64,000 bases of DNA. Source: Gemmatimonadales bacterium. GTDB lineage: Bacteria; Gemmatimonadota; Gemmatimonadetes; Gemmatimonadales; GWC2-71-9. This document shows positions 13,313 through 44,082 of the stretch, in pieces (position 1 is the first letter of the stretch; every line of letters begins with the position of its first letter). Under the pieces are notes generated by a model that was given only the letters and a program-made list of their open reading frames with translations, was not told the DNA's origin and did not search any database. The DNA lies in assembly GCA_036002655.1 (NCBI GenBank), contig DASYTD010000149.1, forward strand, positions 1,452 through 65,451, in the 5' to 3' direction. A program made the position numbers and the translations under genes.

Positions 13313-13336
13313 CTGTGGGCAGCTAATATAGGGAAT

Positions 13337-14422: not shown

Positions 14423-14516
14423 AACTGCGCGTGCGGCGTGGGGCGTGCGGCGTGGCAATGAAATGTTGCGCGCCTCATCGACCTCTCATTTCTACGCCGC
14501 ACGCCACACGCAGTTA
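14422..14516 (-). promoter_or_regulatory. intergenic imperfect palindrome / RNA hairpin between ftsW stop and murG start
   Basis: The mRNA sense reads UAACUGC-GUGUG-GCGUGCGGCGU...(about 53 nt)...ACGCCGCACGC-GCAGUUA-UG. The 7-bp and 11-bp stems are perfect. The first 3 nt are the ftsW stop codon and the last stem nucleotide is the A of the murG AUG. A tandem GCGTGCGGCGTGG unit on one arm allows alternative pairings. Confidence 0.6.
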
Positions 14517-18123: not shown

Positions 18124-18141
18124 GTGACGTCTTCTCCGCCG

Positions 18142-27359: not shown

Positions 27360-28223
27360 CTATTCTCGCGGCGGCTCCTCGCCCTTAGTGACCAGCTCGA
27401 GCATCTCCTGACACTTCTTGCCCCAGGGATTGAACTTGTTCGCCTTGAAGCCGTCTTCCCAGGTGGCCTTGGCTTTCGCCTGATCGCCGGCGAACCAGTG
27501 CGCGCGTCCCAGCTCGTAGTAGGCCTCGATCAGATTGGGACCGAGCTTCAACGTCTTCTGGAAGAACGTCTCCGCGTCTTCGTACATCTCGCGCTGGAGA
27601 TAGACGAGCCCGAGATAGAAATGCGCGTACAGCGTCGCCTTTTTGTCGTTGTCGAGTCGAATCGCCTTCGACAGATGCTCGATGGCCTCGCCGAAGATCC
27701 GCTTCTTCAGGCAGATGTAGCCGACGTTGATCCGCGCGAGTGAATTCGCGGGCTCTTTCATCAAGACTTTTTGGAATGTGCCGAGCGCGTCGTCGTAGTC
27801 CTCGTGCAGCATCTGCGCCCACCCGAGCAGCGACTCCGCCTGCGTCTCGCCGGGCGAGAGCTGGAGCGCCTTGGTGAGCGCTTGGATCGCACCGGCATGA
27901 TCGCCGAGCGAGATGAGGCTCCACCCTTTTTCGATGAAGGTGGACGCGCCGATGTGGTCGGCATGCATGGCGGGCCGCTGTCCCGTGAATTCGGGAGCCG
28001 CGGCCTGCTTCGTGTCGGCGGCGAGCTGCTTGTAGCGGTCGACGAGCTGGCGGATGTCGTCCTTGAGTTGCGTCATCTCGCCCAGCATGCCGTCCACCTT
28101 CTTGAAATACGCGATGATCTCGCGCTTCGCGGCCTCGCGCTCGGCGTTCCCCGGCGCGCCCTCGAGCTGACGCGCGATGGTGTCGTATTCTCGGCGCAGC
28201 GCCGCGACCGGCGATTCCGTCAT
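27360..28223 (-). CDS. TPR-repeat protein (last gene of the che/mgl block)
   Basis: 287 aa. N-terminal coiled-coil-like segment, then TPR repeats (GDHAGAIQALTKALQLSP, YDDALGTFQKVLMKEP, FGEAIEHLSKAIRLD, YEDAETFFQKTLKLGP). The start overlaps the cheW stop by 4 nt. Confidence 0.8.
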   Translation of the reverse strand: MTESPVAALRREYDTIARQLEGAPGNAEREAAKREIIAYFKKVDGMLGEMTQLKDDIRQLVDRYKQLAADTKQAAAPEFTGQRPAMHADHIGASTFIEKGWSLISLGDHAGAIQALTKALQLSPGETQAESLLGWAQMLHEDYDDALGTFQKVLMKEPANSLARINVGYICLKKRIFGEAIEHLSKAIRLDNDKKATLYAHFYLGLVYLQREMYEDAETFFQKTLKLGPNLIEAYYELGRAHWFAGDQAKAKATWEDGFKANKFNPWGKKCQEMLELVTKGEEPPRE

Positions 28224-28699
28224 GTCACTCCTTGCAGGGCCATTTTTTCCTTTGAGTTCAGCAGTTTGTTGGTATTCAAAACGATGATGGTCCGGCCGTT
28301 CTGCACGATGAGACCGGCGATGTATTCGGCCGCCAATCCTTTCACGATACCGGGCGGCGGCGTCACGGCCTCGGCCGCCACCTGCAGCACCTCGGTCACG
28401 GCGTCCACGATCATGCCGATTTTCCCACCCTCGAACTCGAGGATGACGGTGCGCGTGTCCTCGCGCAGCGGTGCCGGCGTGCCGAGACGCTTCCGCAGGT
28501 CCACGAGTGGGACGACGCCGCCCTGATACTGGAGCACGCCCTCGAGAAAGTCGGGCGCCTTCGGCAGCGGCGCGGGCGCTTCATACCGCAGGATGCGCTC
28601 GACTTGAAAGATATTGAACGCGAAATCCTGGCCGCCCACCTTGAACGTGACCAGTTGGACGTCATCACCGGCCTCCCCCGCCCCCCCGGTGGTCGTCAT
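28220..28699 (-). CDS. cheW: chemotaxis coupling protein CheW (copy 1)
   Basis: Start taken at M27 of ORF 28220..28777; it overlaps the upstream stop (ATGA). QLVTFKVGGQDFAFNIFQVERILRYE...VLQYQGGVVPLVDLRKRLG is a typical CheW fold sequence. Confidence 0.88.
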   Translation of the reverse strand: MTTTGGAGEAGDDVQLVTFKVGGQDFAFNIFQVERILRYEAPAPLPKAPDFLEGVLQYQGGVVPLVDLRKRLGTPAPLREDTRTVILEFEGGKIGMIVDAVTEVLQVAAEAVTPPPGIVKGLAAEYIAGLIVQNGRTIIVLNTNKLLNSKEKMALQGVT

Positions 28700-29124
28700 G
28701 CGATACGATCTCCCAGCGCATCCAAGTCGAGAATCGGCACGAGCCCGCTTTCCTGCTCCGCGACGCCGACGGCCCACGGCAGCGTCTGCCCACGCGGCAC
28801 GGGAAGCGGCTGCTCGCGCACGACGGCATCTACGTCGTCTACTTCGAACGCAACTTGCCGGCCCCCCCCGCCCCCGGTGGCGCCGAGCTCGACGAGGACC
28901 ACCGTACGCACCGCACTTGGCGCAGCGGGCGCCTCCGTCCCTGTGAGAAACGCTCCTAAATGGATCAACGGCACCAGGCGTCCGCGCAGCGGCGTCAGGC
29001 CGCGAACTGCAGGGAGTTTACGTGGAACGCTCAGCACCTCAGTCGCGTCCCCGACTTCGAGCACGCGGCCGACCGGCAGACCGTACACCTTTCCCTGGGC
29101 GCGGACCAGCAGGTAGCCTTTCAT
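28696..29124 (-). CDS. cheW: CheW-like protein (copy 2, divergent)
   Basis: Start taken at M95 of ORF 28696..29406 ([24 protein letters not shown]...[15 protein letters not shown]); it overlaps the cheB stop (ATGA). Confidence 0.8.
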
Positions 29125-30248
29125 CGTAACGCCCTGCGACTCAGTTCGGCGGCCACGCGGTCGGCGATCTGGCCGAGCGGCAGCACGACATCCGCCCCGC
29201 CCGCCTGCACCGCCGCCAACGGCATTCCTGGAATGACCGACGTCTCGCGATCCTGCGCGACGCCGGTGCCACCCACGTCGTGGATCGCGCGCAAGCCCTC
29301 GGCGCCGTCGCGGCCCATCCCCGTGAGGACGACGCCTACGCCGCGCGCGCCGTAGACCTCGGCGATCGAGCGGAACAGCGGATCGGCCGCCGGGCGGACG
29401 CCCCAAATGGGCGGAGACTGATCGAGCGCGATGACGGGACCGTCGGGAGCGGAACGCACCCGCATATGATAATCGCCGGGGGCCACGTACGCCGTATCGG
29501 CGACGATCGGCACGCCGTCGTCGGCCTCGACGACGCGCAGCCGGGGGGGGCTCATCGAGTCGAGCCGCTCTGCAAGACTGCGGGTGAATTTCGGCGGCAT
29601 GTGTTGCACGATCAGCACCGCCGCGCCGCGCCCCGTGGGCAGGCGCGGCACGAGATCGGCGAGCGCGCGCGGCCCGCCGGTGGACGCCGCGACGCCGACC
29701 GCCAGCACGGCACGGCCGCGCGGCCGGAGCTCCGGCGGGTGCACGACGGGCGCCGGCGGCCGCGCCAGCACGTTGACGTGCGACAGGTCCGCCGCCAGCG
29801 CGCGACGCACCGCGGCGATGAGCTGCGGCGCAAGCGCTTCGAGCGCCGCGCGGGGATGACCGAAAACATCCGCCGGCGGTTTGGCGACGATCTCGACGGC
29901 GCCGAGCTCAAGGGCGCGGATCGCGGTAGCCGTGCCGGGGCCCACGTACGCGCTGACCACGACGATGGGCAGCGGCGACTCCGACATGATGTAGCCGATG
30001 GCGCCCAAGCCATCGAGCCGCGGCATCTCGAGATCGAGCGTGACGACGTCCGGTCGGTACTGATGCACTTTGCGGATGGCGTCCAGCCCGTCGCGAGCGG
30101 TCGCGACGACGCGGAACTCGCCGTTGTCCGCTTCTCCGCCGCCCAGGACGTCCACCAGCACGCGCCGCATGAGTGCGCTATCGTCGGCGACGACGACCGT
30201 CGGCCGCCCGGAAGACACGGGCTCAGATGACATGGGTATCGGCCCCAA
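29121..30248 (-). CDS. cheB: chemotaxis response regulator protein-glutamate methylesterase CheB
   Basis: REC domain ([21 protein letters not shown]) plus methylesterase catalytic motifs AASTGGP, VQHMP and GMGRDG. The start is 30248 or ATG 30233; both overlap the cheD 3' end. Confidence 0.92.
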
Positions 30249-30714
30249 CCGAGCGGATTTCCACGCGACCGTCCTTCACATGAAAGCGCACGCTGCGCCC
30301 GCGCTCACCCCCGACCGATTCCCGGACGATTGGGATTGCGGCCGCCCGAAGGGCGCTGCGACACGCCAGGACATTGCGCTCGCCCATTTGGATCGTGCCC
30401 GGCGTGACGAGCTGGCTGAACATGCTGGCACCGCCGGCCAGCTTCGCGACGAGCCGACGCGGGTCCGCGCCCAGGCCCTTGAGACGCTCGATCAGCAGGG
30501 GAACGGCGGTGTCGGGGAACTTGGCTCGGTTCGTGATATCGCGCGCCAGACTGGTGGACGGCAGGAGCACGTGCGCCATCGCGCCGGCCTTGGCTTCCGC
30601 ATCGTGCAGCATGAGCGCGACGCAGGACCCGAGTCCCAGCGTGACCAGTACGCCATCCCCGCGCTCGGCCGCCCAATCCGCCACCTTGACGATGACTTCC
30701 GTCACCGTCCTCAC
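30223..30714 (-). CDS. cheD: chemoreceptor glutamine deamidase CheD
   Basis: 163 aa. [13 protein letters not shown] (catalytic Cys), AHVLLP and GERNV motifs. The GTG start overlaps the cheR stop (GTGA). Confidence 0.9.
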
Positions 30715-31541
30715 GCCCTGACCCCCTCGCCGCGTTGCGGAGAGGGGGGACGGAGGGACCCATCGTCAGGCTTGACGTAGATCCGCTCGCGCGGATCCAC
30801 GAGCGTAAGGCGCTCGCGCGCGGGGCCGAACAACGTCTCGACCTTGCCGAGTAGCAGCACGCCGCCCGGTGCGAGCGCGTTCGCGAACACTTGAAACAGC
30901 CGCTCCTGCGCCTGGCGCTCGAAATAGATGACCACGTTGCGGCAGACGATGAGGTCGTAGGGAGGACGGGGCGGCGGCTCTCGCGTCAAATCGTGCGCGC
31001 GGATCTGCACCAGCTCGCGCACCAGGGGGGTCGGCTGCCCGTCCACGATGTAGTGGCGCTTGAGATTCGCCGGCATCTCGGTGAAGGCGCTCTCCGGATA
31101 CTTCGCCTGCCGCGTGCGCTCGAGGCTCAGTCGATCGATGTCCGTCGCGTCGATGAAACCCTGCGCGTGAGTTTCCGCGAGCAGCACCGCGATTGTGTAT
31201 GGCTCTTCACCGGAGGCGCAGCCGGCGGACCAGACGCGCAGGCTCGAGCGTGCCTGTGCCAACGCGTCGAGATAGGGCCGCAACGCGTTCCAGGTCTCGG
31301 CGTTGCGAAAGAACTTGGTGACGTTGATCGTGAGCGCGTCGAGCAGCTCCTGATACTCGCGCGCATCCCGATCGAGCAGCTTGCCGTAATCTTCGTAGGA
31401 ATGCACGCCGCGGGCCCGCATCCGGACCGCGATGCGGCGCTTCAGGCATTTGTCCTTGTACGATCCGCAGCTGATTCCCCGCTCGCGCGAAACCTTCTCC
31501 GTGAGCGCCCGAAAGCCGCGCTCGTCCTGCGCGGAGCTCAC
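30711..31541 (-). CDS. cheR: chemotaxis protein methyltransferase CheR
   Basis: Start taken at V64 of ORF 30711..31730. This GTG forms GTGA with the upstream stop and gives 276 aa. KCLKRRIAVRMR, TKFFRN, LRVWSAGCASGEEPYTIA (SAM site) and CRNVVIYF motifs. Confidence 0.9.
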   Translation of the reverse strand: MSSAQDERGFRALTEKVSRERGISCGSYKDKCLKRRIAVRMRARGVHSYEDYGKLLDRDAREYQELLDALTINVTKFFRNAETWNALRPYLDALAQARSSLRVWSAGCASGEEPYTIAVLLAETHAQGFIDATDIDRLSLERTRQAKYPESAFTEMPANLKRHYIVDGQPTPLVRELVQIRAHDLTREPPPRPPYDLIVCRNVVIYFERQAQERLFQVFANALAPGGVLLLGKVETLFGPARERLTLVDPRERIYVKPDDGSLRPPSPQRGEGVRA

Positions 31542-33154
31542 GACAGGGTGCTCAAGGTTTCCAAATTGGCTTTCACGAGTTCGTGCTTCGGGTTCAGCTC
31601 GAGGGCGCGGCGCCACAAGGCGCTCGCCTGGTCCCGGTCGTTTCGCTTGTAGGCGATGTTGCCGAGCTTGAAGTAGACGTCGTCGCCCAGCTCGGGAGAC
31701 AGCTCGATGGCGCGCTGATACAGCACCCACGCCTCGTCGTAGCGCGAGCCGCGGTAGGCGAGATCGCCGAGGTTCTTGGAGAGCTGCGGCAGGGACGGCT
31801 CGTCGTGCAGCGCGGCACGCGCGAGCTCTTCGGCTTTGAGCAGCTCGCCGGCGAGCTCGTGCAGCACCGCGAGATTGTTGCGGAGCACGCCATTTTGCGG
31901 ATGGGCTTCGACCGCCTGGGCGGCGACCTGCTCCGCAATTTCAAAGTCTCCCGCTGCAGCGGCGGCGAGCGCGCGCGCCCAGAACCAGATCGGCGGCACA
32001 CTCTCGGCAAAGAGCTCCTTGGCCCGGTCGAGCCGGCCCGCGGCGCTGACGTGGTCCCCCTGTTTCAGCGCGACCACGCCCCACCCCACGTAGACGCGCG
32101 GGTCGGTGCGCGCGCGCGTCGCCGCCTCGGCGTACGCCGCTTCCGCATCTTCCAGGCGGCCGAGCTGCTCGAATGCCAGTCCCAGGTTGTGCAACACCGC
32201 GGGCCGCGAGCCACCCTTTTCGGCGGCGAGCCGCAACGCTTCCATCGCTTCGCGCCAGCGCGCCTGCTTCAGCGCCACGAGCCCGATGAAGAAGTGCGCG
32301 TTGGCGTCGGTCGCGCGCAGCTCCGCCACGCGGCGGAATTCGCGCGCCGCTTCGTCCAGCATGCCGGTCTTGTAGAAGGCGATGCCCAAGTTGCGGTGCT
32401 CTTCCACGCGGGCATCCGTCATTTTCATGTCTTCGGCGCTGGCGGTGCGGCCGGCACGGTGGAGGAACCCGGCGGTGACGAGTCCGTACAGCGCCTTCCC
32501 CACCTCGAACTCACCCATCCCGGAGTCTTCGATGACCTGATTGACGTCACGCGAGCCATCGAGCAGCGGCAGCAGGCGCTCCTGCACTTCCGTCAGCTTC
32601 GCGTCGCTGATCGCAAGCCGGTCGCGGTCCACGAGGAAAATCAGATCGAAGGAGGGGATCTTCTTCTCGATGAGGCCCCACTCGTCCACGCGGCGCGCAC
32701 CCTCGAGCAGCAGCGACTCGGGATTGATGGACACGAGGAAGTCCTGCTGCTCGGGCCGGACGTCGGCCTCGAAGTTGAACGTCCCCTGCGTCCACGTGAA
32801 CAGGTAGTAAACCGACTCTTCGATCTGCATGCGCATGTAGCGCTCGAGCTCTTGCTGCGAGATCACGCTCTGGCTGACGAGGATCTCACCCAGCTTCTTG
32901 TCGCGCTCTTTGGCCTGGCGGTGAATCGCGGCGTCCAGCTGGTCCTGCGTGATCTTTTCGTGCTTGACGAGGATGTCGCCGAGGCGGTCGCGGCGATTCA
33001 CGATCGACGCGTACGCGATACGGCCTTTATCGAAGTAGATGTAGCCGAAGTTGGAACGGTCGGCGATCGACAGACAGCCGGTCTTCTGCCCCAACGCGAG
33101 CAGCTGCAGCACGTCGGGGAGCGAGGCTTCCTTGAGCGAGCCTTTGATCGCCAT
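31538..33154 (-). CDS. PATAN/DUF4388 domain - MshEN-like tandem motif - TPR protein (paralogue A)
   Basis: 538 aa. N-terminus [31 protein letters not shown]...GYIYFDKGRIAYA (DUF4388 signature). Then RLGDILVKHEKITQDQLDAAIHRQ-AKERDK-KLGEILVSQSVISQQELERYMRMQ. The C-terminal half is TPR repeats. Confidence 0.8.
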   Translation of the reverse strand: MAIKGSLKEASLPDVLQLLALGQKTGCLSIADRSNFGYIYFDKGRIAYASIVNRRDRLGDILVKHEKITQDQLDAAIHRQAKERDKKLGEILVSQSVISQQELERYMRMQIEESVYYLFTWTQGTFNFEADVRPEQQDFLVSINPESLLLEGARRVDEWGLIEKKIPSFDLIFLVDRDRLAISDAKLTEVQERLLPLLDGSRDVNQVIEDSGMGEFEVGKALYGLVTAGFLHRAGRTASAEDMKMTDARVEEHRNLGIAFYKTGMLDEAAREFRRVAELRATDANAHFFIGLVALKQARWREAMEALRLAAEKGGSRPAVLHNLGLAFEQLGRLEDAEAAYAEAATRARTDPRVYVGWGVVALKQGDHVSAAGRLDRAKELFAESVPPIWFWARALAAAAAGDFEIAEQVAAQAVEAHPQNGVLRNNLAVLHELAGELLKAEELARAALHDEPSLPQLSKNLGDLAYRGSRYDEAWVLYQRAIELSPELGDDVYFKLGNIAYKRNDRDQASALWRRALELNPKHELVKANLETLSTLS

Positions 33155-35091
33155 CAGCGAAGATCCTCGATGACACGGTCAGCAGCCGCGGGCCAATCCC
33201 ACACCATTTTCTCGCGGCTGCGCACACCTCCGGCGCTCGAGACCACGATCCCGCTGGTGCGCAAACCCGCCGTGCGACGCGGCGGCGGAGCGCCCTCGAG
33301 CACGTCGCGGGCGAGACCCGCCGTCACGGGTGCATCCTGCGCCGCGGCCGCCTCGATCACCCGCTGCACGAGCCCCGTCAAGCTGCGCACCGAGTCAACG
33401 GGGCGGTCCACGAGATAATCGAGCAGCGCCTCTTCCACCGGCACACGCTGGTTCTTGAGGAGCCGCGCCAGCGCGGCACGACGTAGCTCCTTGTCGGGGT
33501 CGCCGATTTCCGCGACGAGCCCACCCTCGAGCCGCGAGACGATGCGCTCCTCCAGGCCTTGGAGCGTGTTGGGATGGGCGGGCGCGGTGAAGACCAGCTG
33601 CCGGTCGGCGTCGAGGAACTGGTTGAAGAGATTGAAGAGCTCCTCCTGCGTCCGTTCCTTGCCGGCGAGCAGCTGGATGTCGTCGAGCAGCAGCGCCGTC
33701 GCGCGCCGGTAGCGCGCGCGCCACCAGTCCACCCGGTTGCCGTCAATGGCGGCGATCAGCTCGTCCACGAACTGCTGCGTGGACAGGCACGCCACGATGG
33801 CGTTTTTCTTCTTGGCCAGCTCGAGACCGATGGCGTTCAGGAGATGCGTTTTCCCGCGGCCACTCTTTCCGACGATCACGAGCGGGTTGTATTTCTTCCC
33901 GGGTTTGGCGATGGCGTCACGCGCGGCACTGAGCGCAACCTCGTTGGACGGACCCGCGATGTAGGTGCCGAGGGGGAACGCGCCGGACGGGGCCGGCGGT
34001 GGTGCCGCGCCGTCGCGTACTTTCGCGGCGGCCGCTTCCGCCTCCTCCATGTGGTCGGGATCGCGGAACACTTTCTCGCCCGCCGCCTGCGGATCGAGCA
34101 CCGCGACTTCCGCTTCGAGCGTCTTCAGCCGTTCGACGTCCTGCACGTACGCGGCGATCGCGTCGTCCACGGCCGCCGGCGTTTCCTGATCGAGCAGCTT
34201 CTCGAGCCGGCCGGTGCGGTACCCCTCGCCCTCCCACCGCAACACCGCCTCAGCCACACGCGCGCGCCACGCCTCGACGGCTTTGCCGACGGTGACCGTG
34301 ACGTCACTCAGGAACTGCGAGAACTCATCGCCCGCAGGCTTGGCCGCCGGCTCCGCCTTGGCCTCCCCGCTCCCTGCTACTCCAAGCACCTGCCGCGCGG
34401 CCTCCGCGTTGATGGGCGTGTCATTGACCGCCTGGAACGCGATCAGCCGGTTGAGCGCGCCCATCAGCTCGCGCACGTTCGGATACTCGACCTTCGCAAC
34501 CGTCTCGAGCACGCCGGGCTGGAACGACGTCCCGCGCTCTTCCGCCTTGCGGCGCAGAATCGCGACACGGGTTTCGTAATCGGGAATGCCCATATCGACA
34601 ACCAACCCGCCCGAAAAGCGCGAGATCAGCCGCTCATCGAGGTCCGCGATTTCCGCCGGGGGCCGGTCGCTCGCGAGCACGATCTGATGGCCGGCCTGCT
34701 GTAGTGCTTCGGTGAGGCGGAGCAGCTCGGTCTGCATCTCTTTGCGATTGGTCAGGAATTGCACGTCGTCCACCAGCAGCACATCCACATTCTGGAAGCG
34801 CCGCCGGAATGCGTCGCCCTGTCCGGCCGCGATCGCGGCATGGAAGGCTTCGACGTACTCGTCCAGCGTCAGGTATTCGATGTTGATCTGCGGGGCGAGC
34901 GCCTTGGCGGCGTGCCCGATGGCCATCAGCAGGTGGGTCTTCCCCAGCCCAGAGCCACTATAAATGAAGAGGGGGTTGTAGGCCGAGCCCGGATTCTCGG
35001 CGACCGTGCGTCCCGCCGTGACGGCCAGCCGGTTCGCGGCACCCACCACGAACGTCTCGAACATGAAGCGGGGATTGAGCGTGCTGGTCAT
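33154..35091 (-). CDS. tandem DnaA-domain-III (AAA+) protein lacking DnaA domains I and IV
   Basis: 645 aa. Module 1: [81 protein letters not shown]. Module 2: [56 protein letters not shown]. The ATG overlaps the mglA stop (ATGA). The stop overlaps the start of the next gene by 1 nt. Confidence 0.85.
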
Positions 35092-35690
35092 GCCACGGGG
35101 CTCCCCGCCGCGAGCTTCTTGAGGACTAACTCCGAGATTCCCTTCAGCGTCTCGAAGACGCCCTTGCCGTGCAGCGCGTCCGCCGCGAAGCTGGGCACGC
35201 TGCGGAAGTTCAGGGCGTCGTCCAGCTCCGCCTGCGTGAGAATCAGCTCGGGTGGCAGGTCCTGCTTGTTGTACTGCATCACGAGGGGCATCGTCCGGAC
35301 GTCCACGCCGTGCTCCAGCAGATTGCTCTGCAGGTTCTGGAGGCTCTCGATGTTCTCATCCAGCTGGCGCGCCTGGCTGTCGCCAACGAACACGACCCCG
35401 TCGGCACCCTGGAGCACGAGTCGCCGGGTCGCGTTGTAGTAGACCTGGCCCGGCACCGTGTAGAGCTGAAAGCGCGTCGAGAAGCCGGAAATCTGGCCGA
35501 GATCGATAGGCAGGAAATCGAAGAACAGGGTGCGGTCGGTCTGCGTAGCCAGCGAAACCATCCGCCCCCGCCGCGTCTCCGGCACCCGGCCGTACACGTA
35601 ATGGAGATTGGTCGTCTTTCCGGACCGGCCGGGTCCGTAGTAGACGATTTTGCACGTAATCTCGCGGCTCGTGAAGTTGACCAGGGACAC
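35088..35690 (-). CDS. mglA: Ras-like small GTPase MglA
   Basis: 200 aa, collinear with Myxococcus MglA as I remember it. [21 protein letters not shown] (P-loop), [11 protein letters not shown] (switch 1 with the intrinsic Arg), [10 protein letters not shown] (the MglA-specific TxxGQ in place of DxxGQ) and YNKQD. Confidence 0.93.
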
Positions 35691-35692
35691 GG

Positions 35693-36169
35693 CTATCTCC
35701 CAAACAGCGTGTTGAGGCTGTCCGTCAGCTCGCGCTCGAAGTCCGCGGCCAGCACCTGCTTTGGGACTGCGCCCTTGGGACTCGCCGACTTCAAGTCCGC
35801 CGCAAGTTGCTCATAGAATAACTGCACCAAGCCAAGCGATGAAACATCGAGATCGTAGACGGCCAGCACCGCCACCGTGCCGCGCTCCGTGGCGAAGGTC
35901 GCCAGGAAGAAGCCGTTCTTGGGACCTTGATGACTGAGGGCGGCGAACGGCGGCTGCCGCAGCTGGCGCGCCAGCTCGCCCGTGGAGGCGACGATCGCGG
36001 CGGCCAACGCTGCCGCCGACATCACGTCCACCGCCCGTGAGAATCCGGACTGCGCCAGCACCTGCCCGGACGGCGTCAGCACGAGCACCAGACGCACCGA
36101 TGCTTCCCGCACGAAGTCGGTGAGCGGCTGGAGCGTCCAGCTCTCGACGGCGCGGGTCTGGGGACTCAT
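35693..36169 (-). CDS. mglB: Roadblock/LC7 protein MglB (GAP partner of MglA)
   Basis: Start taken at M199 of ORF 35693..36763; it overlaps the upstream stop (ATGA) and gives 158 aa. Roadblock core [18 protein letters not shown]...[12 protein letters not shown] plus a C-terminal tail ending DSLNTLFGR. It lies immediately upstream of mglA, as in the mglBA operon. Confidence 0.8.
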
Positions 36170-36513: not shown

Positions 36514-37358
36514 GTTTGTTTCTCCAACCACCGGCGCGCCATGGCGGTCGCGCGTTGCGCGAGAATCGCGAGGCGACCCAGCGGCATGCCGCGCTCCCGC
36601 ACGACGAGCAGCAAGGCCTCAGGCGTCGGATGGCCAAGGTGCACGTTGCCGTGCTGCCCTTCGGCCGAGAGCCCGTTCCACGCGCCGAGCCCGAGCAGCT
36701 TCGCGGTCCGCGCCGCCTCCTGCGACACACCGGCGAGATACGCGGCGACGGCGTCCGTGACATCAGTACCAGACTTATCCCTCAAGGCACCACCGAGGAC
36801 ACGACCAGCGCCGTCGATGAGCAGCAGGCCTTCGTTTGCACCCTCGAGTCCTGCGAAAACGCGAGCTTCGTCGAGCACACCACCCGAAACGGCGGCGGTA
36901 GAAGAGGCGGCGGTCGCTGACGGCTCCGGGGCGGAACTCGGTGTGGGCGACGGCGGTCCCACGCCGCTGCGCATCATCGCGATCGCCTGATCGATGGTGG
37001 GATCATCCGGCTCGACCTTGCGCGCGGCCTCGAGATGGGACTCGGCTTGCGCCAGGTCGCCGACTTTGAAATAGAGGAAGGCGAGTCCCTTCAACGCACC
37101 GGTGTGGTTCGGCGCGATCCGCACCGCCATGTCCCACTCGTCGAAGGCGCGCTCGTAATCATGCTTGTCGGTGAGCACGCGCGCGTACAGGTCGTGAGCG
37201 TCCGCCAGGTGGGGATGGCGCTCGAGGCCGTTCATCGCGACGCGCAGCGCCGCCTCGAGCTGGCCCTTGCGCCGCAAGGCTTCGCCCAGCCGCAGGAACA
37301 CGAGGCTCTGCGGATCCTGTGCGAGCTGGGCGGAGAGTGCGCGAATCTCGTCAGCCAT
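36510..37358 (-). CDS. TPR - Roadblock/LC7 fusion protein
   Basis: 282 aa. The N-terminal 130 aa or so are TPR-like (LGEALRRKGQLEAALRVAMNGLERHP, YERAFDEWDMAVRIAP, LAQAESHLEAARKVEP). A Ser/Pro/Ala linker follows. The C-terminal segment GLLLIDGAGRVLGGAL...ALLLVVRERGMPLGRLAILAQRA is Roadblock-like. Confidence 0.75.
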   Translation of the reverse strand: MADEIRALSAQLAQDPQSLVFLRLGEALRRKGQLEAALRVAMNGLERHPHLADAHDLYARVLTDKHDYERAFDEWDMAVRIAPNHTGALKGLAFLYFKVGDLAQAESHLEAARKVEPDDPTIDQAIAMMRSGVGPPSPTPSSAPEPSATAASSTAAVSGGVLDEARVFAGLEGANEGLLLIDGAGRVLGGALRDKSGTDVTDAVAAYLAGVSQEAARTAKLLGLGAWNGLSAEGQHGNVHLGHPTPEALLLVVRERGMPLGRLAILAQRATAMARRWLEKQT

Positions 37359-38487
37359 GGGCGAACACTCGGGCTGCTTGCCGGGCGCGCTCGACTTCGG
37401 ACCGCTGCGCTTCCTCGTCGGGGCCGCGGGCGAGCCGCTCCCATTGATCCCAGCTTGCGACCGCTTCGGCGAACCGGCCCATGGACACCAGCGCGAATCC
37501 CAGCTGGCGATGCGCGGCCGCGAGCTGCGGGTCGAGCCGCAGCGCGCGGCGCAGCTCCTCGGCAGCCGCGGAGCCGTGTCCCTGAGCCAGGTGAATCCGG
37601 CCGAGCAGCATGTGGATCGTCGGATCGTGCGGCTGCATGCCGCCCGCCTGCTCCGCCGCCGCGCGCGCCGCGTCGAGATCCTTCGCGAGCAACGCCCGCT
37701 CCGCCTTCGCGACGAGCTCCGGCAGATCCGACACGGCGCTGGGCCGCCCGCGCTTTGCCGTGCCGGGGTCCACCAGCACGATCACACCCGCGCTCTCGAG
37801 ACCGAACAGCGTCTTGGCGACGTCGAAGTCCGAGCGGCCCAGCTCCGTCGCCAGTCCCCGGACGGAACGCTCGCCATCAATGAGCGCCAGCACCTCCCAC
37901 TCGGGTGGCAGCAGATCGAGCTCGCCGCCGCCCCCTTCGGGTGGCGGCGCGAGCGACGGCACGACGCCGACATGGGGAATGCGGTTCTCGATGCGCGACC
38001 ATTCGTCGATGCGGCGCGCTCCTTCCATCAGCAACGCTTCGACCGGAATCCGCACCGTGACCTCGGTCGGCACTTTCGTGTCGGGCTGCTCGTTGAACGA
38101 GAAGTAGCCTTCGTTCCAGCTCATCACTTCGAAGACGACTTCCTCGATCTGGAACCGCACTTGCCGCTCGACCTCGCGTTGGGTGATCACGCCGAGCGCG
38201 ACCAGGATTTCGCCGAGCCGCCGCTTGTCGCCCTGGCGCTGCTGCATGTCGCGGGCGCGCTCGAGGTCGGCCTCGGTGATCTTGCCCGTGCGCAGCAGCA
38301 GCGCGCCCAGCGGGTGCGGGTTGCTGCGGATTTCCGCGGAGACCACCACCCCGTTGTCGAAATAGATCGTCCCCTCGTTGTGCCGCAGCTCCGAGGTGAC
38401 CTTCAACGCGCCCGTCTTCCGGCTCAGATCGAGGAGCTGGAAGACGTCGTGGATGCCGAGCTCGCGGAGCGGTCCTTCGATCGCCAT
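37351..38487 (-). CDS. PATAN/DUF4388 domain - MshEN-like tandem motif - TPR protein (paralogue B)
   Basis: 378 aa. MAIEGPLRELGIHDVFQLLDLSRKTGALKV...GTIYFDNGVVVSA (DUF4388). Then PLGALLLRTGKITEADLERARDMQ and RLGEILVALGVITQREVERQVRFQ. C-terminal TPR repeats. Confidence 0.8.
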   Translation of the reverse strand: MAIEGPLRELGIHDVFQLLDLSRKTGALKVTSELRHNEGTIYFDNGVVVSAEIRSNPHPLGALLLRTGKITEADLERARDMQQRQGDKRRLGEILVALGVITQREVERQVRFQIEEVVFEVMSWNEGYFSFNEQPDTKVPTEVTVRIPVEALLMEGARRIDEWSRIENRIPHVGVVPSLAPPPEGGGGELDLLPPEWEVLALIDGERSVRGLATELGRSDFDVAKTLFGLESAGVIVLVDPGTAKRGRPSAVSDLPELVAKAERALLAKDLDAARAAAEQAGGMQPHDPTIHMLLGRIHLAQGHGSAAAEELRRALRLDPQLAAAHRQLGFALVSMGRFAEAVASWDQWERLARGPDEEAQRSEVERARQAARVFAHG

Positions 38488-38491
38488 GTCG

Positions 38492-41191
38492 CTACGCCGC
38501 GTCCGAGGTGGAGAAGATGTGCTGCAAATCCACGGCGGTCCGCGCGTGCATGCGCGACCGCTGCGCGAACGGTCCGCCCGGATCGATGCGGGTCACCCGC
38601 TCCCACGCGTCCACCGCTTCGCCATAGCGCTGCAGCCGCGCCAGCGTCGCGCCGAGGTAGAATAACGCGCCGGTGTGCTCGGGATCGAACTTGAGCGCGC
38701 GCCGGAACGCCTCGAGCGCTTCGACGTTGCGCTTGTCGTCGAGCAGCGCTCGGCCGAGCAACAGCAACGCATCCATGTCGTACGGATCCTGCTCCAGCAT
38801 TTCGGCGAGCCGCACCACGGCGGCGCGAACGCTGCCCGAGCGCCGCAACAAATCGGCGAGCGCGAGCGCCGCCTCATGGAACGTCGGCAACGCCTCGAGC
38901 GCCTCTTCGTACGCGCGCTGCGCCTGCGGCCAATCTTCGTCCTGCTCGTGCAGCCGGCCCAGCTCCAGCCACACCTGCACGAATCCCCGATCGAGATCGA
39001 GGGCGGAGCGGTACGCGGCGCTCGCGCCCTGCCGATCGCCGACCTTGAGCGCGATGTCGCCCTGCAGCTTGTGCAGATCGGCACGCGCCGGCGCACGGGT
39101 CTGTGCCTGCCGCAGCGCCGTGAGCGCGCCGGCCGCGTCACCCGTCGCGGCGCGTGCCTTTGCGGCGGCCACCAGCACCTCGACGTCTTCCGGCGCGTTG
39201 GTGGCGAGCGCTTCGGCGAGCGGCAGCGCTTCGGCTCCCCGATGCACGGCCAGGAGGCTCTTCACCTCGCCCAGCGCCGCGGCGGAGTTCGCGGCGTCGA
39301 GCGTGCGGGCTTCGCGGTAGCGCTCGAGCGCTTCGCCGTGCAGGCCGCGGCGCGCGTAGATGTCGCCGAGCAGCGTGGCCGCCTGGCCGCGGTCGGCACC
39401 GCGCTGGACGGCCCGCATCGCTTCGGCGACCGCGAGGTCCATCATCCCCTTGCTCACGTAGTCGCGTGCCAAGGCAAGCGGGTCGTCCACTTTCTTCGCG
39501 AGCCCGGCAGGTGCGGGCTGCAGCGCCGCCGCGGGCGGCTCGAGCTCCTGGAAAATGTTGTCGAGCAGCCGTTGGTCGAACGCGAACTCGCCTCCGAGGT
39601 TCTCGGCCGTGACGTCGGCCGAGATCTCGGGCACGATGCCGATGGCCACGGTCTCGTATTGCAGGTCGATCGCCAGGGCGAATTTCTGCGAGACGTAGTA
39701 GGGATCCAGCTCGAGGGCGCGTTTGGTGGCCCGCAGCGCGCCGTCGTAATCGCCGAGATTGGACAGCGTGAAGCTCAGGTTGTAGTGCGCGCCGGCATTC
39801 TGCGGATCGGCCTCGACCGCTCGCACGAACGCGTTGCGGGCATCGGGAAACCGTTTCAGCTCGACCAGCACCAGCCCCACGCCGTTCCACGCCGGCGCCG
39901 ACGCCGGCTGTTCCGCCAGCACCTGGCGATAGGCTTCGAGTGCGAGCTGGAAGCGGCGCAGATGCGTGAGCAGCAACGCGAGATTGAGCCGGGCGCCCAG
40001 GAATCCGGGCGAGAGCTGCAGCGCTTTCCGGAACCCCTCGATGGCGTCCTCGGTGTCGCTCTGATGCGCGAGCACCACGCCCACGTTATTCCAGGCGAGC
40101 GCGTAGCGCGGATCGACTTCGGTCGCCTGACGATAGGACGTGAGCGCTTCGGCCGTGCGCCCCGCCTGATGCAACACCACGCCGCGCTCGTTCCACAGCT
40201 TGGGCGAATCAGGCAGGTCATGGATCAACGACTCGTACAGCTCGAGCGCGTCGGGGAAGTCGCGCTTGAGGAGATAGACCTCCGCCATCGCCTGGCGCAC
40301 GAGCCGCCGGTCCTCCCCGCGCTCGATCGCGAGGCGATACTCGCGCAGCGCCTCCGTGTAGTAGCCCTTCTGCCGGAAGGCGAGGCCGAGGTTGTAGTGG
40401 GCGAGCTCGCTGCCCTCGGCGACTTCCGGCGCGGGTTGCTCGCGCAGCCGGTGCTCGGCCGACTGCCGCTCGGCGCGGTAGCGCTCCAGCGACAGATTCG
40501 TCTGCGCGCGCGCGAGCGGCGGGTTGAGCTGAATCGCCCGTTTCGATGCCGCGCGCGCATCCTGATGCCGCCCCATGTCGCCGAGCACGAACGCCATCAG
40601 GTAATGCGCGTTCGCGTTGTCGGGATTGAGCATCACCGCGCGCTCCAGGGCGGTCAGCGCCGGCTCGTTCAAGCCGCGATTGTAGTAGACCTCCCCCAGA
40701 TAGAAGTGCACGACGGAGGAATCGGGCTCCTCCTCGGCGGCCCGCAGGAACCACTCGGTCGCGACTTCCAACCGGCCGCGGGATTTCTCGGCGAGTCCGA
40801 GCTGGATGATCGCGGCCACGTCCTTGGGCTTGTGGGCGAGCAGCTCCTCGAACTCGGCGACCGCCTCCTCGAAGGCGCCGAGGATCGCGTACGTGCGGCC
40901 CAGCTCCCAGCGCGCGTCGCGCTCGTCGGGCGCCTGGCGCAGGCGCTCCTGCAGCTCGCCGACGCGGCGGTCGTAATAGCCGGTGTTGTGGTAGGAAATC
41001 TCGAGGTTGCGCTGCGCGACCTGCATCCGCGGGTCGAGCTCCAGCGCGCGCGTGAACTGCTCGATGGCCTCGGGCACGAGGCCTTTTTGATAATAGAGAA
41101 CGCCGAGGTTGTTGTGCGCCCCCGCGTCCGACGGATCGATCCGGCGGGCAAAGGACCTCAACACCGTGAGGTCGCGTTCTGATACGATCAA
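38492..41191 (-). CDS. large TPR-repeat protein (about 899 aa)
   Basis: ORF 38492..41302 is TPR repeats essentially end to end (more than 20 repeats by eye). The annotated ORF start overlaps cheC by 115 nt. I prefer TTG 41191-41189, which forms TTGA with the cheC stop. GTG 41164 is an alternative start. Confidence 0.8.
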   Translation of the reverse strand: MIVSERDLTVLRSFARRIDPSDAGAHNNLGVLYYQKGLVPEAIEQFTRALELDPRMQVAQRNLEISYHNTGYYDRRVGELQERLRQAPDERDARWELGRTYAILGAFEEAVAEFEELLAHKPKDVAAIIQLGLAEKSRGRLEVATEWFLRAAEEEPDSSVVHFYLGEVYYNRGLNEPALTALERAVMLNPDNANAHYLMAFVLGDMGRHQDARAASKRAIQLNPPLARAQTNLSLERYRAERQSAEHRLREQPAPEVAEGSELAHYNLGLAFRQKGYYTEALREYRLAIERGEDRRLVRQAMAEVYLLKRDFPDALELYESLIHDLPDSPKLWNERGVVLHQAGRTAEALTSYRQATEVDPRYALAWNNVGVVLAHQSDTEDAIEGFRKALQLSPGFLGARLNLALLLTHLRRFQLALEAYRQVLAEQPASAPAWNGVGLVLVELKRFPDARNAFVRAVEADPQNAGAHYNLSFTLSNLGDYDGALRATKRALELDPYYVSQKFALAIDLQYETVAIGIVPEISADVTAENLGGEFAFDQRLLDNIFQELEPPAAALQPAPAGLAKKVDDPLALARDYVSKGMMDLAVAEAMRAVQRGADRGQAATLLGDIYARRGLHGEALERYREARTLDAANSAAALGEVKSLLAVHRGAEALPLAEALATNAPEDVEVLVAAAKARAATGDAAGALTALRQAQTRAPARADLHKLQGDIALKVGDRQGASAAYRSALDLDRGFVQVWLELGRLHEQDEDWPQAQRAYEEALEALPTFHEAALALADLLRRSGSVRAAVVRLAEMLEQDPYDMDALLLLGRALLDDKRNVEALEAFRRALKFDPEHTGALFYLGATLARLQRYGEAVDAWERVTRIDPGGPFAQRSRMHARTAVDLQHIFSTSDAA

Positions 41192-41805
41192 GTCAATCGA
41201 ATGGCGTCGAAGATCGCTTTGAGAGACGCCAGGTCGGGCAGGAGCAGGAAATGCCCGCGCAGCCCGTCTTGGGCATCGATGTTGAACTCCGTCTCGACGC
41301 AAAACACGAAGTCCCGGTCGTGCCCAAAGTTCAGATAGGTCGTTGTGAGCACGGCGGCGGAGAGATCCACTACCAGGCTAGGGACCGAGGGGAGCAGCAA
41401 CATCCCCATGAATTCGGACAGCGCGTTCATGTAAGCGCCCGAGAGGATGTTGCCGGCTTCCTTGAGGCAGGACTGCTCGATCGTCTCGAACACCTTGGTC
41501 GTGCCCAGGGGGCGCTTGAGCAGCATGTCGCACAGCTGCCGCCCGACGGGCTCGGGGAACAGCAGCAACGTGCGTCCCGTGAGGTCGCCGAGCATGTGCA
41601 TGAGGACGGCGGCGACGACCTCCTGTGGGTCGCCGATCAGTCCCGGCACCTCCTCGAGGCGCGCGATGTTGATCTCGGGTACCGAGATCATGATGCGCCG
41701 GTGCGTGAGCTGCGACAGCGCCGTGGCGGCGTGCCCCGCTCCGATGTTGGCGACCTCTTTCAGCGCGTCGAGCTGCAGCGCCTTCAGATCACGGACGTCT
41801 TCCAT
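41188..41805 (-). CDS. cheC: CheY-P phosphatase CheC
   Basis: Start taken at M12 (MEDVRDLKALQLDALKEVANIGAGHAATALSQL) with GGAGGAG upstream. A second pseudo-repeat follows (EQSCLKEAGNILSGAYMNALSEF). Both halves carry the E-x2-N active-site pattern. Confidence 0.85.
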   Translation of the reverse strand: MEDVRDLKALQLDALKEVANIGAGHAATALSQLTHRRIMISVPEINIARLEEVPGLIGDPQEVVAAVLMHMLGDLTGRTLLLFPEPVGRQLCDMLLKRPLGTTKVFETIEQSCLKEAGNILSGAYMNALSEFMGMLLLPSVPSLVVDLSAAVLTTTYLNFGHDRDFVFCVETEFNIDAQDGLRGHFLLLPDLASLKAIFDAIRLT

Positions 41806-41818
41806 CGTCGCTCCTCCC

Positions 41819-43717
41819 CTACACCAGGCCGGCGGCATCGAGAATCAGCGCCGGCACCCCATCGCCCATGATCGTGGCGCCGCTGAAGACCGGCAGCGTG
41901 CCTTCCGGTGCATCGAATCCCTTCACGACGATCTCCTGCTGACTGAGCATCCCGTCGACGACGATCCCGGCGCGCCGCTCGCCCAATTCCACAACAATCA
42001 CTGGGCGCCGCGGCGGCGGCGCGGGAGCACCGCCATTCGTTCCCAGGAGCTTCCGCAGATCCACGAGCGGCACCACCCGATCGCGCAGCACAATGGCGTC
42101 GCGGCCTTCCATCGTCGTGAGGGGCACCGTCCCGAACTCGACCGTCTCCGCGACGTAGGTCAGCGGCAGCGCGTAGCGCTCCTGGCCGACGGCGGCGATC
42201 AGCGCGCGCACGATCGCGAGCGTCACCGGCAGCCGCAGGATGAAGGCGGTGCCCTTCCCCGGCTCGGTGCGGATCTCGATCGATCCGCCGAGCGCGCGGA
42301 TGCGCGTCATGGCGACATCGATCCCGACTCCTCGGCCCGAGACGTTGGTCACCGCATCCGCCGTGGAGAATCCCGGCCGCGCGAGCACGCGCAGCAGCTG
42401 ATCGTCCGACAGTGCCTCGACGTGCGGGCCCACGATTCCTTCGCGCTTCGCCTGCTCCAGAATGCGCGTGCGATCGATGCCGCGGCCGTCGTCGCTGATG
42501 CTGATCGCGACGCTGGAGCGCTCGCGCACGGCCGAGAGAACGATCTCTCCCTCGGCATTCTTCTTGGCGCGTTTGCGCTCGGCGGGGGACTCGATGCCGT
42601 GGTCCACGGCGTTGCGCAGCAGGTGCACGAGCGGATCGCCCAACTCGTCGAGGATTTCGCGATCGAGCTCGATCTCCTTCCCTTCCACGCGAAACGCCAC
42701 CTGCTTGCCGACCTGCCGGGCAACGTCGCGCACCAGCCGGGGAAAGCGATCGAACACTTGCCAGACCGGCGTCATGCGCGCCTGGATGATTTCGTTCTGC
42801 AGATCAGCGGAGAGCCGCGAGATCTGAATCGCGACTTCGTCGATCTGCGGATCGTGTCCGACCCAGCGTGCCGCCAGCTCGTTCAAGCGGCCGCGCTCCG
42901 TGACGAGCTCGCCGATGAGATCCATGAGCGTATCGAGCCGGCGCAGATCCACCCGGATGTGCCGGCCGCGCCCCCCACCCGCGACGCTCTCGGCGGGCGT
43001 GACCTGGCTCTCGTCGCCCCCCCCCGCGACGGTGGCGCGTTCGACGTCTCCCACCGAGCGGATGGCGGCCTCGATGTCGGCCGGCGCAGCCGCGGTGTCG
43101 AGCTCGAAGGCGAAACGGCCATCGAAGTCATCGGACTCGAATGCGGCGGCCGCGGGCTGGAGGCGATGAACAGCGCCGAGCGTCTGCGCCTTGCGCACGA
43201 TCAGCATCGCGCGGCCGCCCTTGAGCGGGGCTTCGGGACGGATTACGACTTGGACGACGCGTCCGGAGCCGGACGGGGCGGCGAGTGAGGCGGCGGCGGG
43301 GGGCGGCGGTCGCTTGGGCACCGCCTGGGCTTTCGGTGCGTAATGCGCCGCTGCGCGATCGATGTCCGCGACAACGGTCAGATCCGCATCACGCTCCCGG
43401 CCGGCAACGGCGAGCGCAACCGCCTTCTCGAGTGCGTCAGTTGCGCGGAACAAGAGCTGCAGCGTCTCGTCAGTCGGATGTCGCGCGCCGCGCCGCAAGT
43501 GATCGAGCAGGTTTTCCATGCGGTGGGCGAGGTCCGCGACGCGGCCGTAACCCATCGTCGCCGCCATCCCCTTGATCGTATGCACCGCGCGGAAGATGCC
43601 GCCCACCGGCTCCGGCGAGGCGGGATGCCGCTCCCACTCGAGCAACAGCTGATTGCAGGCGCTCAAGTGCTCGCGGCTCTCGGCCAGGAACAGCTCGGCG
43701 TACTGCGACAGGTCCAT
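41819..43717 (-). CDS. cheA: chemotaxis histidine kinase CheA
   Basis: Start taken at M43 (MDLSQYAELFLAESREHL), 2 nt after the cheY stop. Hpt motif FRAVHTIKG, dimerisation RHIRVDLRRLDTLMDLIGELV, N-box HLLRNAVDHGIE, G-boxes DDGRGID and GRGVGID, and a C-terminal CheW-like domain. No C-terminal REC domain. Confidence 0.95.
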   Translation of the reverse strand: MDLSQYAELFLAESREHLSACNQLLLEWERHPASPEPVGGIFRAVHTIKGMAATMGYGRVADLAHRMENLLDHLRRGARHPTDETLQLLFRATDALEKAVALAVAGRERDADLTVVADIDRAAAHYAPKAQAVPKRPPPPAAASLAAPSGSGRVVQVVIRPEAPLKGGRAMLIVRKAQTLGAVHRLQPAAAAFESDDFDGRFAFELDTAAAPADIEAAIRSVGDVERATVAGGGDESQVTPAESVAGGGRGRHIRVDLRRLDTLMDLIGELVTERGRLNELAARWVGHDPQIDEVAIQISRLSADLQNEIIQARMTPVWQVFDRFPRLVRDVARQVGKQVAFRVEGKEIELDREILDELGDPLVHLLRNAVDHGIESPAERKRAKKNAEGEIVLSAVRERSSVAISISDDGRGIDRTRILEQAKREGIVGPHVEALSDDQLLRVLARPGFSTADAVTNVSGRGVGIDVAMTRIRALGGSIEIRTEPGKGTAFILRLPVTLAIVRALIAAVGQERYALPLTYVAETVEFGTVPLTTMEGRDAIVLRDRVVPLVDLRKLLGTNGGAPAPPPRRPVIVVELGERRAGIVVDGMLSQQEIVVKGFDAPEGTLPVFSGATIMGDGVPALILDAAGLV

Positions 43718-43719
43718 CG

Positions 43720-44082
43720 CTATCCCAGGACGCGCTGGACGGCTTCGAGGACGCGGGAGGGCTGGAAGGGTTTGACGACGAAGTCCTTGGCGCCCGCCTG
43801 AATGGCTTCGACGACCAGCGCCTGCTGGCCCATGGCGCTGCACATCAGGATCTTGGCGTCGGGATCGTGCTTGACGATTTCGCGGACGGCATCGATGCCG
43901 CCCATGTCGGGCATCACGATGTCCATCGTGACGAGGTCGGGCTTGAGCTGCCGGTACTTTTCGACCGCCTGGGTGCCGGTTTCCGCCTCGCCGACGACCT
44001 CGAATCCGGCCTGGGCCAGGATGTCGGTGATCATCGTGCGCATGAAGATGGCATCGTCACAGACGAGAACCGTGTGGCTCAC
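43720..44082 (-). CDS. cheY: chemotaxis response regulator CheY
   Basis: 120 aa single REC domain. VLVCDD, LVTMDIVMP (phospho-Asp), CSAMG and FVVKPF are all present. Confidence 0.95.
   Translation of the reverse strand: MSHTVLVCDDAIFMRTMITDILAQAGFEVVGEAETGTQAVEKYRQLKPDLVTMDIVMPDMGGIDAVREIVKHDPDAKILMCSAMGQQALVVEAIQAGAKDFVVKPFQPSRVLEAVQRVLG

Follow-up and report, generated by a model that had tools for sequence, protein, structure and literature searches.

Wang et al. (2016, PMC5013675) described in the ATPase MshE of Vibrio cholerae a subdomain that binds cyclic di-GMP (c-di-GMP). This subdomain, MshEN_N (PDB 5HTL), is a four-helix bundle made of two tandem 24-residue motifs, and isolated MshEN_N(1-62) binds c-di-GMP alone with a dissociation constant (KD) of 0.35 uM. 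A homologue of this bundle lies inside the PATAN (DUF4388) domain of a protein, here termed PATAN-B, encoded in a 64,000-nucleotide stretch of DNA from a Gemmatimonadales bacterium (assembly GCA_036002655.1, contig DASYTD010000149.1, positions 1,452 to 65,451 of the forward strand). The whole stretch is called the window; coordinates are positions within it, and protein residues are counted from the ATG of PATAN-B. Residues 59-113 of PATAN-B are the alpha-clip insertion of the PATAN domain. The four helices of this clip form a compact bundle that is homologous to MshEN_N, and MshEN_N takes up one c-di-GMP in MshE, in the GSPII-B and GSPII-C domains of PilF, and in other proteins with this motif. 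The sequence and a structural model make it plausible that the clip of PATAN-B also binds c-di-GMP, with a probability that we put at about 0.5.

The kinship between PATAN and the ATPases is not new. According to Han et al., Makarova et al. (2006) described the alpha-clip as two repeated helix-hairpin units in PATAN, which recur at the N-termini of GspE/PilB ATPases. The PATAN domains of PixG, PixE, LsiR, and TaxP1 of Synechocystis have the same helical insertion as that of PATAN-B. Unlike these cyanobacterial regulators, which combine PATAN with a receiver domain and bind PilB1 and PilC, PATAN-B consists of PATAN, a part resembling a winged helix-turn-helix, and tetratricopeptide repeats (TPRs), has no receiver, and is encoded in an MglA/MglB/Che operon. 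In their Table S3, Wang et al. (PMC5013675) listed a segment of the Myxococcus xanthus protein MXAN_3211 (residues 50-128, ending ...DAFHWDGDFLF) as a predicted binder and MXAN_1145 as a predicted non-binder; they did not label either as PATAN, and their architecture table gives DUF4388 only as a separate domain. Oklitschek et al. class MXAN_3211 as a PATAN protein; as in PATAN-B, its tandem motif starts at about residue 57-59 and is followed by a W-x-G-x-F-x-F core strand. It differs from PATAN-B in belonging to another phylum and in its downstream domains, and it too is only a predicted binder; STRING links it by co-occurrence to the MglA effector SgmX. The homology of the alpha-clip to GspE/PilB (2006), a predicted PATAN binder (2016), and an NCBIfam model that detects the clip are thus already known, and the action of c-di-GMP on the MglA module of Gemmatimonadota via a PATAN clip is a testable hypothesis and not a new type of system.

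The PATAN-B gene (37351..38487, (-) strand) is an open reading frame (ORF) of 378 amino acids with an ATG start, and its product is made up of a PATAN/DUF4388 domain with the alpha-clip, a small winged-helix-like middle domain, and C-terminal TPRs. Residues 4-164 match Pfam DUF4388 (PF14332; 113.4 bits, E 8e-33) over profile positions 1-122 of 122, and this match to the entire profile places PATAN-B in the PATAN family. As delimited by Pfam and by AlphaFold2 (AF2), the whole PATAN domain covers residues 1-170 (37978..38487, (-)) and has a beta/alpha core that is split by the clip. The C-terminal TPR region (residues ~255-378; 37354..37725, (-)) contains Pfam TPR matches at residues 257-350. 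In Pfam terms, PATAN, the middle domain, and the TPRs are the only components of the protein, and no secretion or pilus ATPase of the T2SSE type is fused to them. Orthologues share the N-terminus MAIEGPL or MPIEGPL; in the public records, they are proteins of Gemmatimonadales bacteria labelled only as "DUF4388 domain-containing protein".

The ORF reads P59-LGALLLRTGKITEADLERARDM-Q82 and then R90-LGEILVALGVITQREVERQVRF-Q113, exactly the letters that an earlier note on this DNA had given for residues 59-82 and 90-113. Motif I (residues 59-82, PLGALLLRTGKITEADLERARDMQ; 38242..38313, (-)) corresponds to helices alpha1 and alpha2. It is separated by a 7-residue spacer, QRQGDKR (residues 83-89; 38221..38241, (-)), from motif II (residues 90-113, RLGEILVALGVITQREVERQVRFQ; 38149..38220, (-)), which corresponds to helices alpha3 and alpha4; the span 38149-38313 is exactly motif II, the spacer, and motif I. 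Wang et al. give a relaxed pattern, [RKPN]hGxxhhxx[GAS]hhxxxxhxxxhxx[QNKRYWST], with 11 constrained positions; motif II satisfies 11/11 and motif I 9/11, and the earlier note was right to call the second copy nearly complete and the first partial. Motif I deviates at K69 (position 11) and R79 (position 21), its P59 (position 1) being permitted. The ligand-contact set consists, in each motif, of R/K/L/P at position 1, L at 2, G at 3, hydrophobic residues at 17 and 21, and Q at 24. Motif II has this set in full, as a canonical half-site (R90, L91, G92, V106, V110, and Q113). Motif I, with P/K/R at positions 1/11/21, would be a variant half-site in which P59, L60, G61, L75, and Q82 of the contact set are present, with K69 at position 11 and, at position 21, R79 instead of a hydrophobic residue. 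A six-frame translation of the window contains 41 single matches at 9/11 and 4 at 10/11; motif I alone would be meaningless because single matches at 9/11 are so frequent. Only two matches reach 11/11, and these are motif II of PATAN-B and motif II of a second PATAN gene, PATAN-A, in the same window.

Profile searches relate the pair of motifs to the c-di-GMP-binding family. Residues 59-112 of PATAN-B fit positions 1-52 of the curated NCBIfam model NF053729 (53 positions, "cyclic di-GMP-binding domain, MshE-related") with 43.3 bits (cut-off 38, E 2.3e-11). A phmmer search of the PDB with a 62-residue segment returned PilF of Thermus thermophilus (E 2e-7), the PilB ATPase 5zfr, and V. cholerae MshE 5HTL (E 4e-4). 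On NF053729, the fragments of proven binders score 85.2 (VcMshE), 66.4 (PA2677), 61.6 (M. xanthus PilB), 53.9 (NfrB), and 36.8 bits (Bd2402), the clear non-binder XpsE scores 16.7, and P. aeruginosa PilB, another clear non-binder, gives no match. By sequence, PATAN-B (43.3) and PATAN-A (53.8) lie within the range of the binders, and the M. xanthus fragments score 46.5 (MXAN_3211) and 26.6 bits (MXAN_1145).

The earlier note had spoken of an MshEN-like motif and of the T2SSE_N (MshEN) domain, and had named the lack of a match to the T2SSE_N profile, along with a lack of c-di-GMP binding, as grounds for rejection. The homology to MshEN_N stands, on the strength of NF053729, of the structural comparison with 5HTL, and of a reciprocal match between VcMshE and DUF4388 (see below). 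The assignment to T2SSE_N does not, since the segment is the N subdomain of MshEN only and not a full MshEN/T2SSE_N domain, the C subdomain (T2SSE_N1) being missing. PF05157 (T2SSE_N) indeed gives no match to PATAN-B at E<=10, and it is absent from all 120 PATAN-B orthologues listed. The absence of this match is nevertheless uninformative because, as stated in the supplement of Wang et al. (PMC5013675), PF05157 omits the first three helices, which carry the binding site; the profile is not a valid test of the proposal.

AF2, given an 83-sequence alignment, modelled full-length PATAN-B with a pLDDT (AF2's confidence measure) of 94.4. The Foldseek search with this model was swamped by TPR matches, and residues 1-185 were therefore modelled separately (pLDDT 87.6). 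In the model, the PATAN core comprises strands 3-6, 26-32, 37-44, 47-53, and 128-133 and helices 12-22 and 149-166; the clip helices (60-66, 72-83, 91-97, and 103-122) are inserted between strands 47-53 and 128-133, and the chain re-enters the core after residue 113. The best Foldseek match of the N-terminal model in the PDB is c-di-GMP-bound MshE (5htl_B), with a root-mean-square deviation of 1.3 Å over 56 columns, 36% identity, and a probability of 1.00, and the next five are c-di-GMP-bound PilF GSPII-B structures at 1.4-1.6 Å. The PATAN core has no significant match among the solved PDB structures in this search. In the reciprocal direction, the first 79 residues of VcMshE match Pfam DUF4388 with 25.6 bits against a gathering threshold of 25, with VcMshE 7-32 aligned to profile positions 49-74. 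Since the N-terminus of VcMshE reaches the gathering threshold, one MshEN-type repeat is part of the Pfam PATAN model, and domain databases at present show an overlap of the two families.

PATAN-B and VcMshEN_N have in common the Gly at position 3 and the Gln at position 24 of both motifs and the R-L-G that opens motif II. Unlike MshE, PATAN-B has neither MshEN_C (T2SSE_N1) nor an ATPase, its bundle is inserted inside PATAN, its spacer has 7 residues instead of 5, its motif I has P/K/R at positions 1/11/21, and it is a putative binder only. The GSPII-C domain of T. thermophilus PilF (PMC11731258, PMC12002112; 8pdk, 6f8l), whose KD for c-di-GMP is ~0.3-0.5 uM, resembles PATAN-B in having a Pro as the first residue of one motif and a 7-residue spacer (KGLPRAK, from phmmer); the GSPII domains of PilF differ in having a C subdomain and in belonging to a pilus ATPase. 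A module consisting of MshEN_N only, fused to unrelated domains, is found, as in PATAN-B, in NfrB of E. coli, EpsG of Methylobacillus, and Bd2402 of Bdellovibrio. NfrB shares with PATAN-B the Pro at position 1 of motif I, and EpsG shares the string LLLRxGKIT; in these three proteins, the module sits at a terminus or serves as a linker, whereas that of PATAN-B is an insertion within another fold. Bd2402 (REC-MshEN_N-UNK) binds c-di-GMP tightly despite an imperfect motif. When the "UNK" part was examined for a PATAN identity, a 77-residue fragment of Bd2402 found no homologue in a word-indexed search and no match in Pfam.

With the PATAN domain of PATAN-B as query, 10,684 relatives at E<=1e-3 were recovered from 1.84 billion representative proteins; of the 150 best representatives, 142 span the clip, and the counts that follow refer to these. 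In motif I and in motif II, respectively, position 3 is G in 125 and 123 of the 142, position 6 is L in 130 and 136, position 10 is G in 117 and 125, and position 24 is Q in 93 and 117. At position 1, motif I has R in 61 and P in 44 homologues, and motif II has R in 91; at position 21, motif I has R in 49, L in 47, and V in 15. The spacer has 5 (13 homologues), 6 (48), 7 (71), 8 (9), or 9 residues (1). A proline at position 1 is accompanied by an arginine at position 21 in 29 of 44 homologues; of the 61 homologues with an arginine at position 1, 45 are hydrophobic at position 21. This pattern suggests a pairing of the P59 and R79 positions; it is confounded by phylogeny and is not counted as evidence here. 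Three homologues of 1455-1492 residues (P0138, P0144, and P0156) contain five or six PATAN-with-clip repeats per polypeptide, and such multi-PATAN proteins would be multivalent c-di-GMP binders if the clips bind.

Conservation is tighter among the 81 Gemmatimonadales orthologues of PATAN-B (69-92% identical). In these, P59, L60, G61, R79, Q82, R90, G92, and Q113 are invariant, as is the stretch N56-P57-H58-P59; L75 and L91 are 96% conserved, and V106 and V110 vary among V, L, and I only. The clip is the most conserved segment of PATAN-B, with a mean identity to the window residue of 0.91, and the TPRs are the least conserved, at 0.73.

If the clip of PATAN-B binds c-di-GMP, it would hold a monomeric molecule across the end of the bundle. 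The first guanine would occupy the canonical half-site, with R90 stacking on it, the backbone amides of G92 and E93 bonding to its Hoogsteen edge, L60, V106, and V110 forming a hydrophobic triangle, and Q113 on the ribose-phosphate. The second guanine would occupy the variant half-site and be contacted by the amides of G61 and A62, by L91 and L75, and by Q82; here, P59 would replace the stacking arginine and R79 the second leucine. R79 might even substitute for the stacking arginine lost at P59, in what could be called an arginine swap. The site would face the junction with the PATAN core, since the contact residues would be near the points at which the chain enters (58/59) and leaves (113/114) the bundle. 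The ligand might then alter the geometry between clip and core and so change the partner binding of PATAN-B as a PATAN-TPR adaptor. Candidate partners are MglA-GTP, the type IV pilus motor, and Che components, and c-di-GMP would thereby become an input into the polarity module. The analogy is with MglA-GTP, which has TPR effectors in M. xanthus, and with PilB and PilC as partners of the cyanobacterial PATAN regulators. A wider proposal is that PATAN clips in general, including both paralogues here, are functional c-di-GMP receptors that gate contacts with MglA-GTP or the pilus motor, the arginine having moved from position 1 to position 21 in a subfamily; this we put forward tentatively, and the odds are rather against it.

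Several observations weigh against c-di-GMP binding by the clip of PATAN-B, and most of them would fit another explanation, in which the clip is a degenerate, non-binding homologue of MshEN_N that serves as a rigid protein-protein surface, either as a "landing pad" of the GSPII-A type or by imitating the PilB N-terminus and competing with it for a partner of both. On this view, the clip would be conserved because of its fold and its partner contacts and not because of a nucleotide. A PilB-like surface of the clip for shared partners was proposed by Han et al., and in Synechocystis PATAN binds PilB1 and PilC. Binding has been lost in many MshEN homologues, namely XpsE, P. aeruginosa PilB, PilB and GspE of V. 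cholerae, and the GSPII-A domain of PilF. GSPII-A scores 54.4 bits on NF053729, above PATAN-B, and gives no c-di-GMP binding by isothermal titration calorimetry or nuclear magnetic resonance even when all six of its deviant residues are restored to consensus (PMC11731258, PMC12002112). Because GSPII-A is near-consensus and yet non-binding, a motif or a profile score does not by itself guarantee binding, and its failure to bind through structural context is, by analogy, the main caveat for a clip in the context of PATAN. In addition to K69, motif I has R79, which occupies the place of L29 of MshE, part of the leucine triangle that packs on the guanine; L29R is one of the eight changes in the non-binder XpsE (Wang 2016, PMC5013675). 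The conservation of Q at position 24 and of G at position 3 may be due to folding. The up-down-up-down bundle puts the contact residues next to the entry and exit of the chain, so that, on the topology of the model, the putative site would abut the PATAN core, which could either cover it or let binding act allosterically. Enzymes of c-di-GMP metabolism were not found nearby: Pfam detects no GGDEF, EAL, or HD-GYP domain in the 41 predicted window proteins scanned (31 of them only at E<=1e-5; stretches with an ORF of high third-position GC content only), and tblastn with a PleD GGDEF sequence as query gave no match in the window or, in 80 related loci, up to 10 kb from the gene. Likewise, no c-di-GMP enzyme domain is among the 25 most frequent families listed for the 41 longer homologues scanned (>=400 residues), which are TPR/ARM-type repeats and Coatomer_E only, 7 further families lying outside this list. 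The literature searched yielded no experimental binding test of a PATAN-embedded clip. To our knowledge, there is no report of c-di-GMP binding by the well-studied cyanobacterial PATAN regulators.

On the other side, non-binders typically lose the Gly at position 3, the Arg at position 1, or the Gln at position 24, and PATAN-B keeps G61, G92, R90, Q82, and Q113, which are invariant in its orthologues and conserved family-wide. The proline in place of the arginine at position 1 has precedents, being found in motif I of the binders NfrB and PA2677 and in motif II of PilF GSPII-C, and Neissner et al. widened position 1 to R/K/L, the arginine being dispensable. In GSPII-A, helix alpha1 is N-capped and extended into the pocket, which blocks binding together with contacts between subdomains (PMC11731258, PMC12002112). 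A block of this type is unlikely in PATAN-B, because in the model the helix begins only at residue 60, after the invariant N56-P57-H58-P59, and P57 and P59 would exclude the extension. Moreover, Bd2402 binds tightly with a lower score (36.8 bits). We would give the non-binding surface appreciable weight, short of even odds. An improbable alternative is that the clip takes another cyclic dinucleotide or guanine nucleotide, such as 3'3'-cGAMP, pGpG, or (p)ppGpp, via one canonical and one variant half-site. VcMshEN_N does bind cGAMP weakly (KD 3.3e-4 M), unequal half-sites (canonical motif II, and motif I with P59 and R79) could suit an asymmetric ligand, and the window contains the gene of a c-di-AMP synthase (DAC, 53987-54787); however, VcMshEN has no detectable binding of c-di-AMP and binds cGAMP ~600-fold more weakly than c-di-GMP, and both half-sites of PATAN-B retain the Gly backbone and Gln contacts that would read guanine and ribose-phosphate. 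As for a chance resemblance of amphipathic helices to MshEN, single matches at 9/11 and 10/11 are common enough in the six-frame translation (41 and 4) to suggest it, but the motifs are in tandem and correctly spaced, the NF053729 match (E 2e-11) is above the curated cut-off, the model superimposes on 5HTL at 1.3 Å, MshE matches DUF4388 in return, and 74 of 83 homologues match NF053729; this explanation is effectively refuted by the combined profile, structural, reciprocal, and homologue results.

The interest of c-di-GMP binding by the PATAN-B clip comes partly from the phylum. In Gemmatimonas aurantiaca, Table S5 of Wang et al. (PMC5013675) counts 22 c-di-GMP turnover proteins (8 GGDEF, 5 GGDEF+EAL, 2 EAL, and 7 HD-GYP), no PilZ, and only 2 MshEN proteins. 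Since turnover enzymes are many, PilZ proteins none, and MshEN proteins few, Gemmatimonadota would seem to have the messenger and few known receptors. If the clips do bind, they would be a new receptor class for a phylum without PilZ, with few known receptors and many GGDEF/EAL/HD-GYP enzymes; PATAN would become a further widespread class of c-di-GMP effectors, and the level of c-di-GMP would directly set polarity or motility in Gemmatimonadota. Nucleotide control would then be worth re-testing in some 10,000 PATAN proteins, including PixG, PixE, and the M. xanthus PATAN proteins. Independently of binding, the identification of the clip is a sound improvement of the annotation and will be no surprise to specialists.

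The second PATAN protein of the window, PATAN-A (31538..33154, (-)), has 538 residues, consists of PATAN and TPRs, and is 35% identical to PATAN-B. Its tandem motif (residues 57-110, window 32825-32986) reads RLGDILVKHEKITQDQLDAAIHRQ, a 6-residue spacer, and KLGEILVSQSVISQQELERYMRMQ, and matches NF053729 with E 1e-14, its 53.8 bits exceeding the 43.3 bits of PATAN-B. All its contact residues are canonical (R57/K87, L, G, and Q80/Q110); at the two inter-helix Gly positions, it has E66 and S96 instead. PATAN-A is a candidate for c-di-GMP binding equal to or better than PATAN-B. The earlier note had described the motif in paralogue B; it is not special to this paralogue, given the higher score of paralogue A and the match of NF053729 (E<=1e-3) to 74 of 83 diverse PATAN relatives.

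Both genes belong to an operon, and the genes across 28220-44082 are all on the (-) strand in the order CheY, CheA, CheC, a 936-residue TPR protein, PATAN-B, three Roadblock-type proteins (including MglB), MglA, an AAA+ protein, PATAN-A, and CheR/CheD/CheB/CheW. The head of the operon, with CheC, CheA, and CheY (41188..44082, (-)), the 936-residue TPR protein directly upstream of PATAN-B (38492..41302, (-)), and the tail, with CheR, CheD, CheB, and CheW (28220..31730, (-)), were assigned from profile matches. Downstream of PATAN-B come a TPR protein that resembles MglB weakly at its C-terminus (36510-37358, (-); NCBIfam E 1.3e-4, without a match to Pfam Robl_LC7), a stand-alone Roadblock protein (36166-36531, (-); profile matches), and an MglB-like Roadblock/LC7 protein (35693..36169, (-)), which would be the GTPase-activating partner and matches Pfam Robl_LC7 and the MglB of PDB 6h5b and 6izw (E 1e-8). 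The small GTPase MglA (35088..35690, (-)) matches M. xanthus MglA (5ymx/6izw) over its full length (phmmer E 4e-73, 248 bits). On these sequence comparisons, it is a true orthologue of M. xanthus MglA, and its neighbour matches M. xanthus MglB, in agreement with the earlier note, which had set PATAN-B in an MglA module. A neighbourhood of PATAN with MglA/MglB is already mentioned by Makarova et al. and by Wuichet and Sogaard-Andersen.

Orthologues of PATAN-B (69-92% identity) and a collinear operon were recovered in 80 species-level genomes, which are named Gemmatimonadales or Gemmatimonadota in all but four records, and losses are mostly at contig ends. MglA and MglB, three to four genes downstream of PATAN-B, are kept in 73-76 of the 80 loci, and here too the gaps are mostly contig ends. 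Three consecutive Roadblock/LC7-type genes adjoin mglA (35693-37358), and neighbouring ORFs, including PATAN-B, overlap by 4 to 22 nucleotides, which suggests translational coupling. The Che gene set is split around the MglA/PATAN block (28220-44082). No methyl-accepting chemoreceptor gene was detected in the operon, and the 936-residue TPR protein occupies a place in which one might expect a receptor or scaffold.

Between mglA and PATAN-A lies the gene of a 645-residue protein with two DnaA-type AAA+ modules (33154..35091, (-); Pfam Bac_DnaA twice, NCBIfam DnaA/Hda partial), which is found in 66 of 80 related loci. The protein covers only positions ~101-336 of the DnaA profile and is without the N-terminal and DNA-binding domains of DnaA; the presence of a DnaA/Hda-like ATPase within a polarity/chemotaxis operon is unusual.

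Outside the operon, the gene at 53987-54787 (-), ~16 kb upstream of PATAN-B, codes for a protein with a DAC domain (CdaA/DisA_N-type c-di-AMP synthase; Pfam E 2e-38). Downstream of the operon, an ordinary dcw (division/cell-wall) cluster at 8714-24163 (-) includes MraW, an FtsI-type penicillin-binding protein, MurE, MurF, MraY, an FtsQ-like POTRA protein, and FtsZ, and a DivIVA gene is found at 50521-51099.

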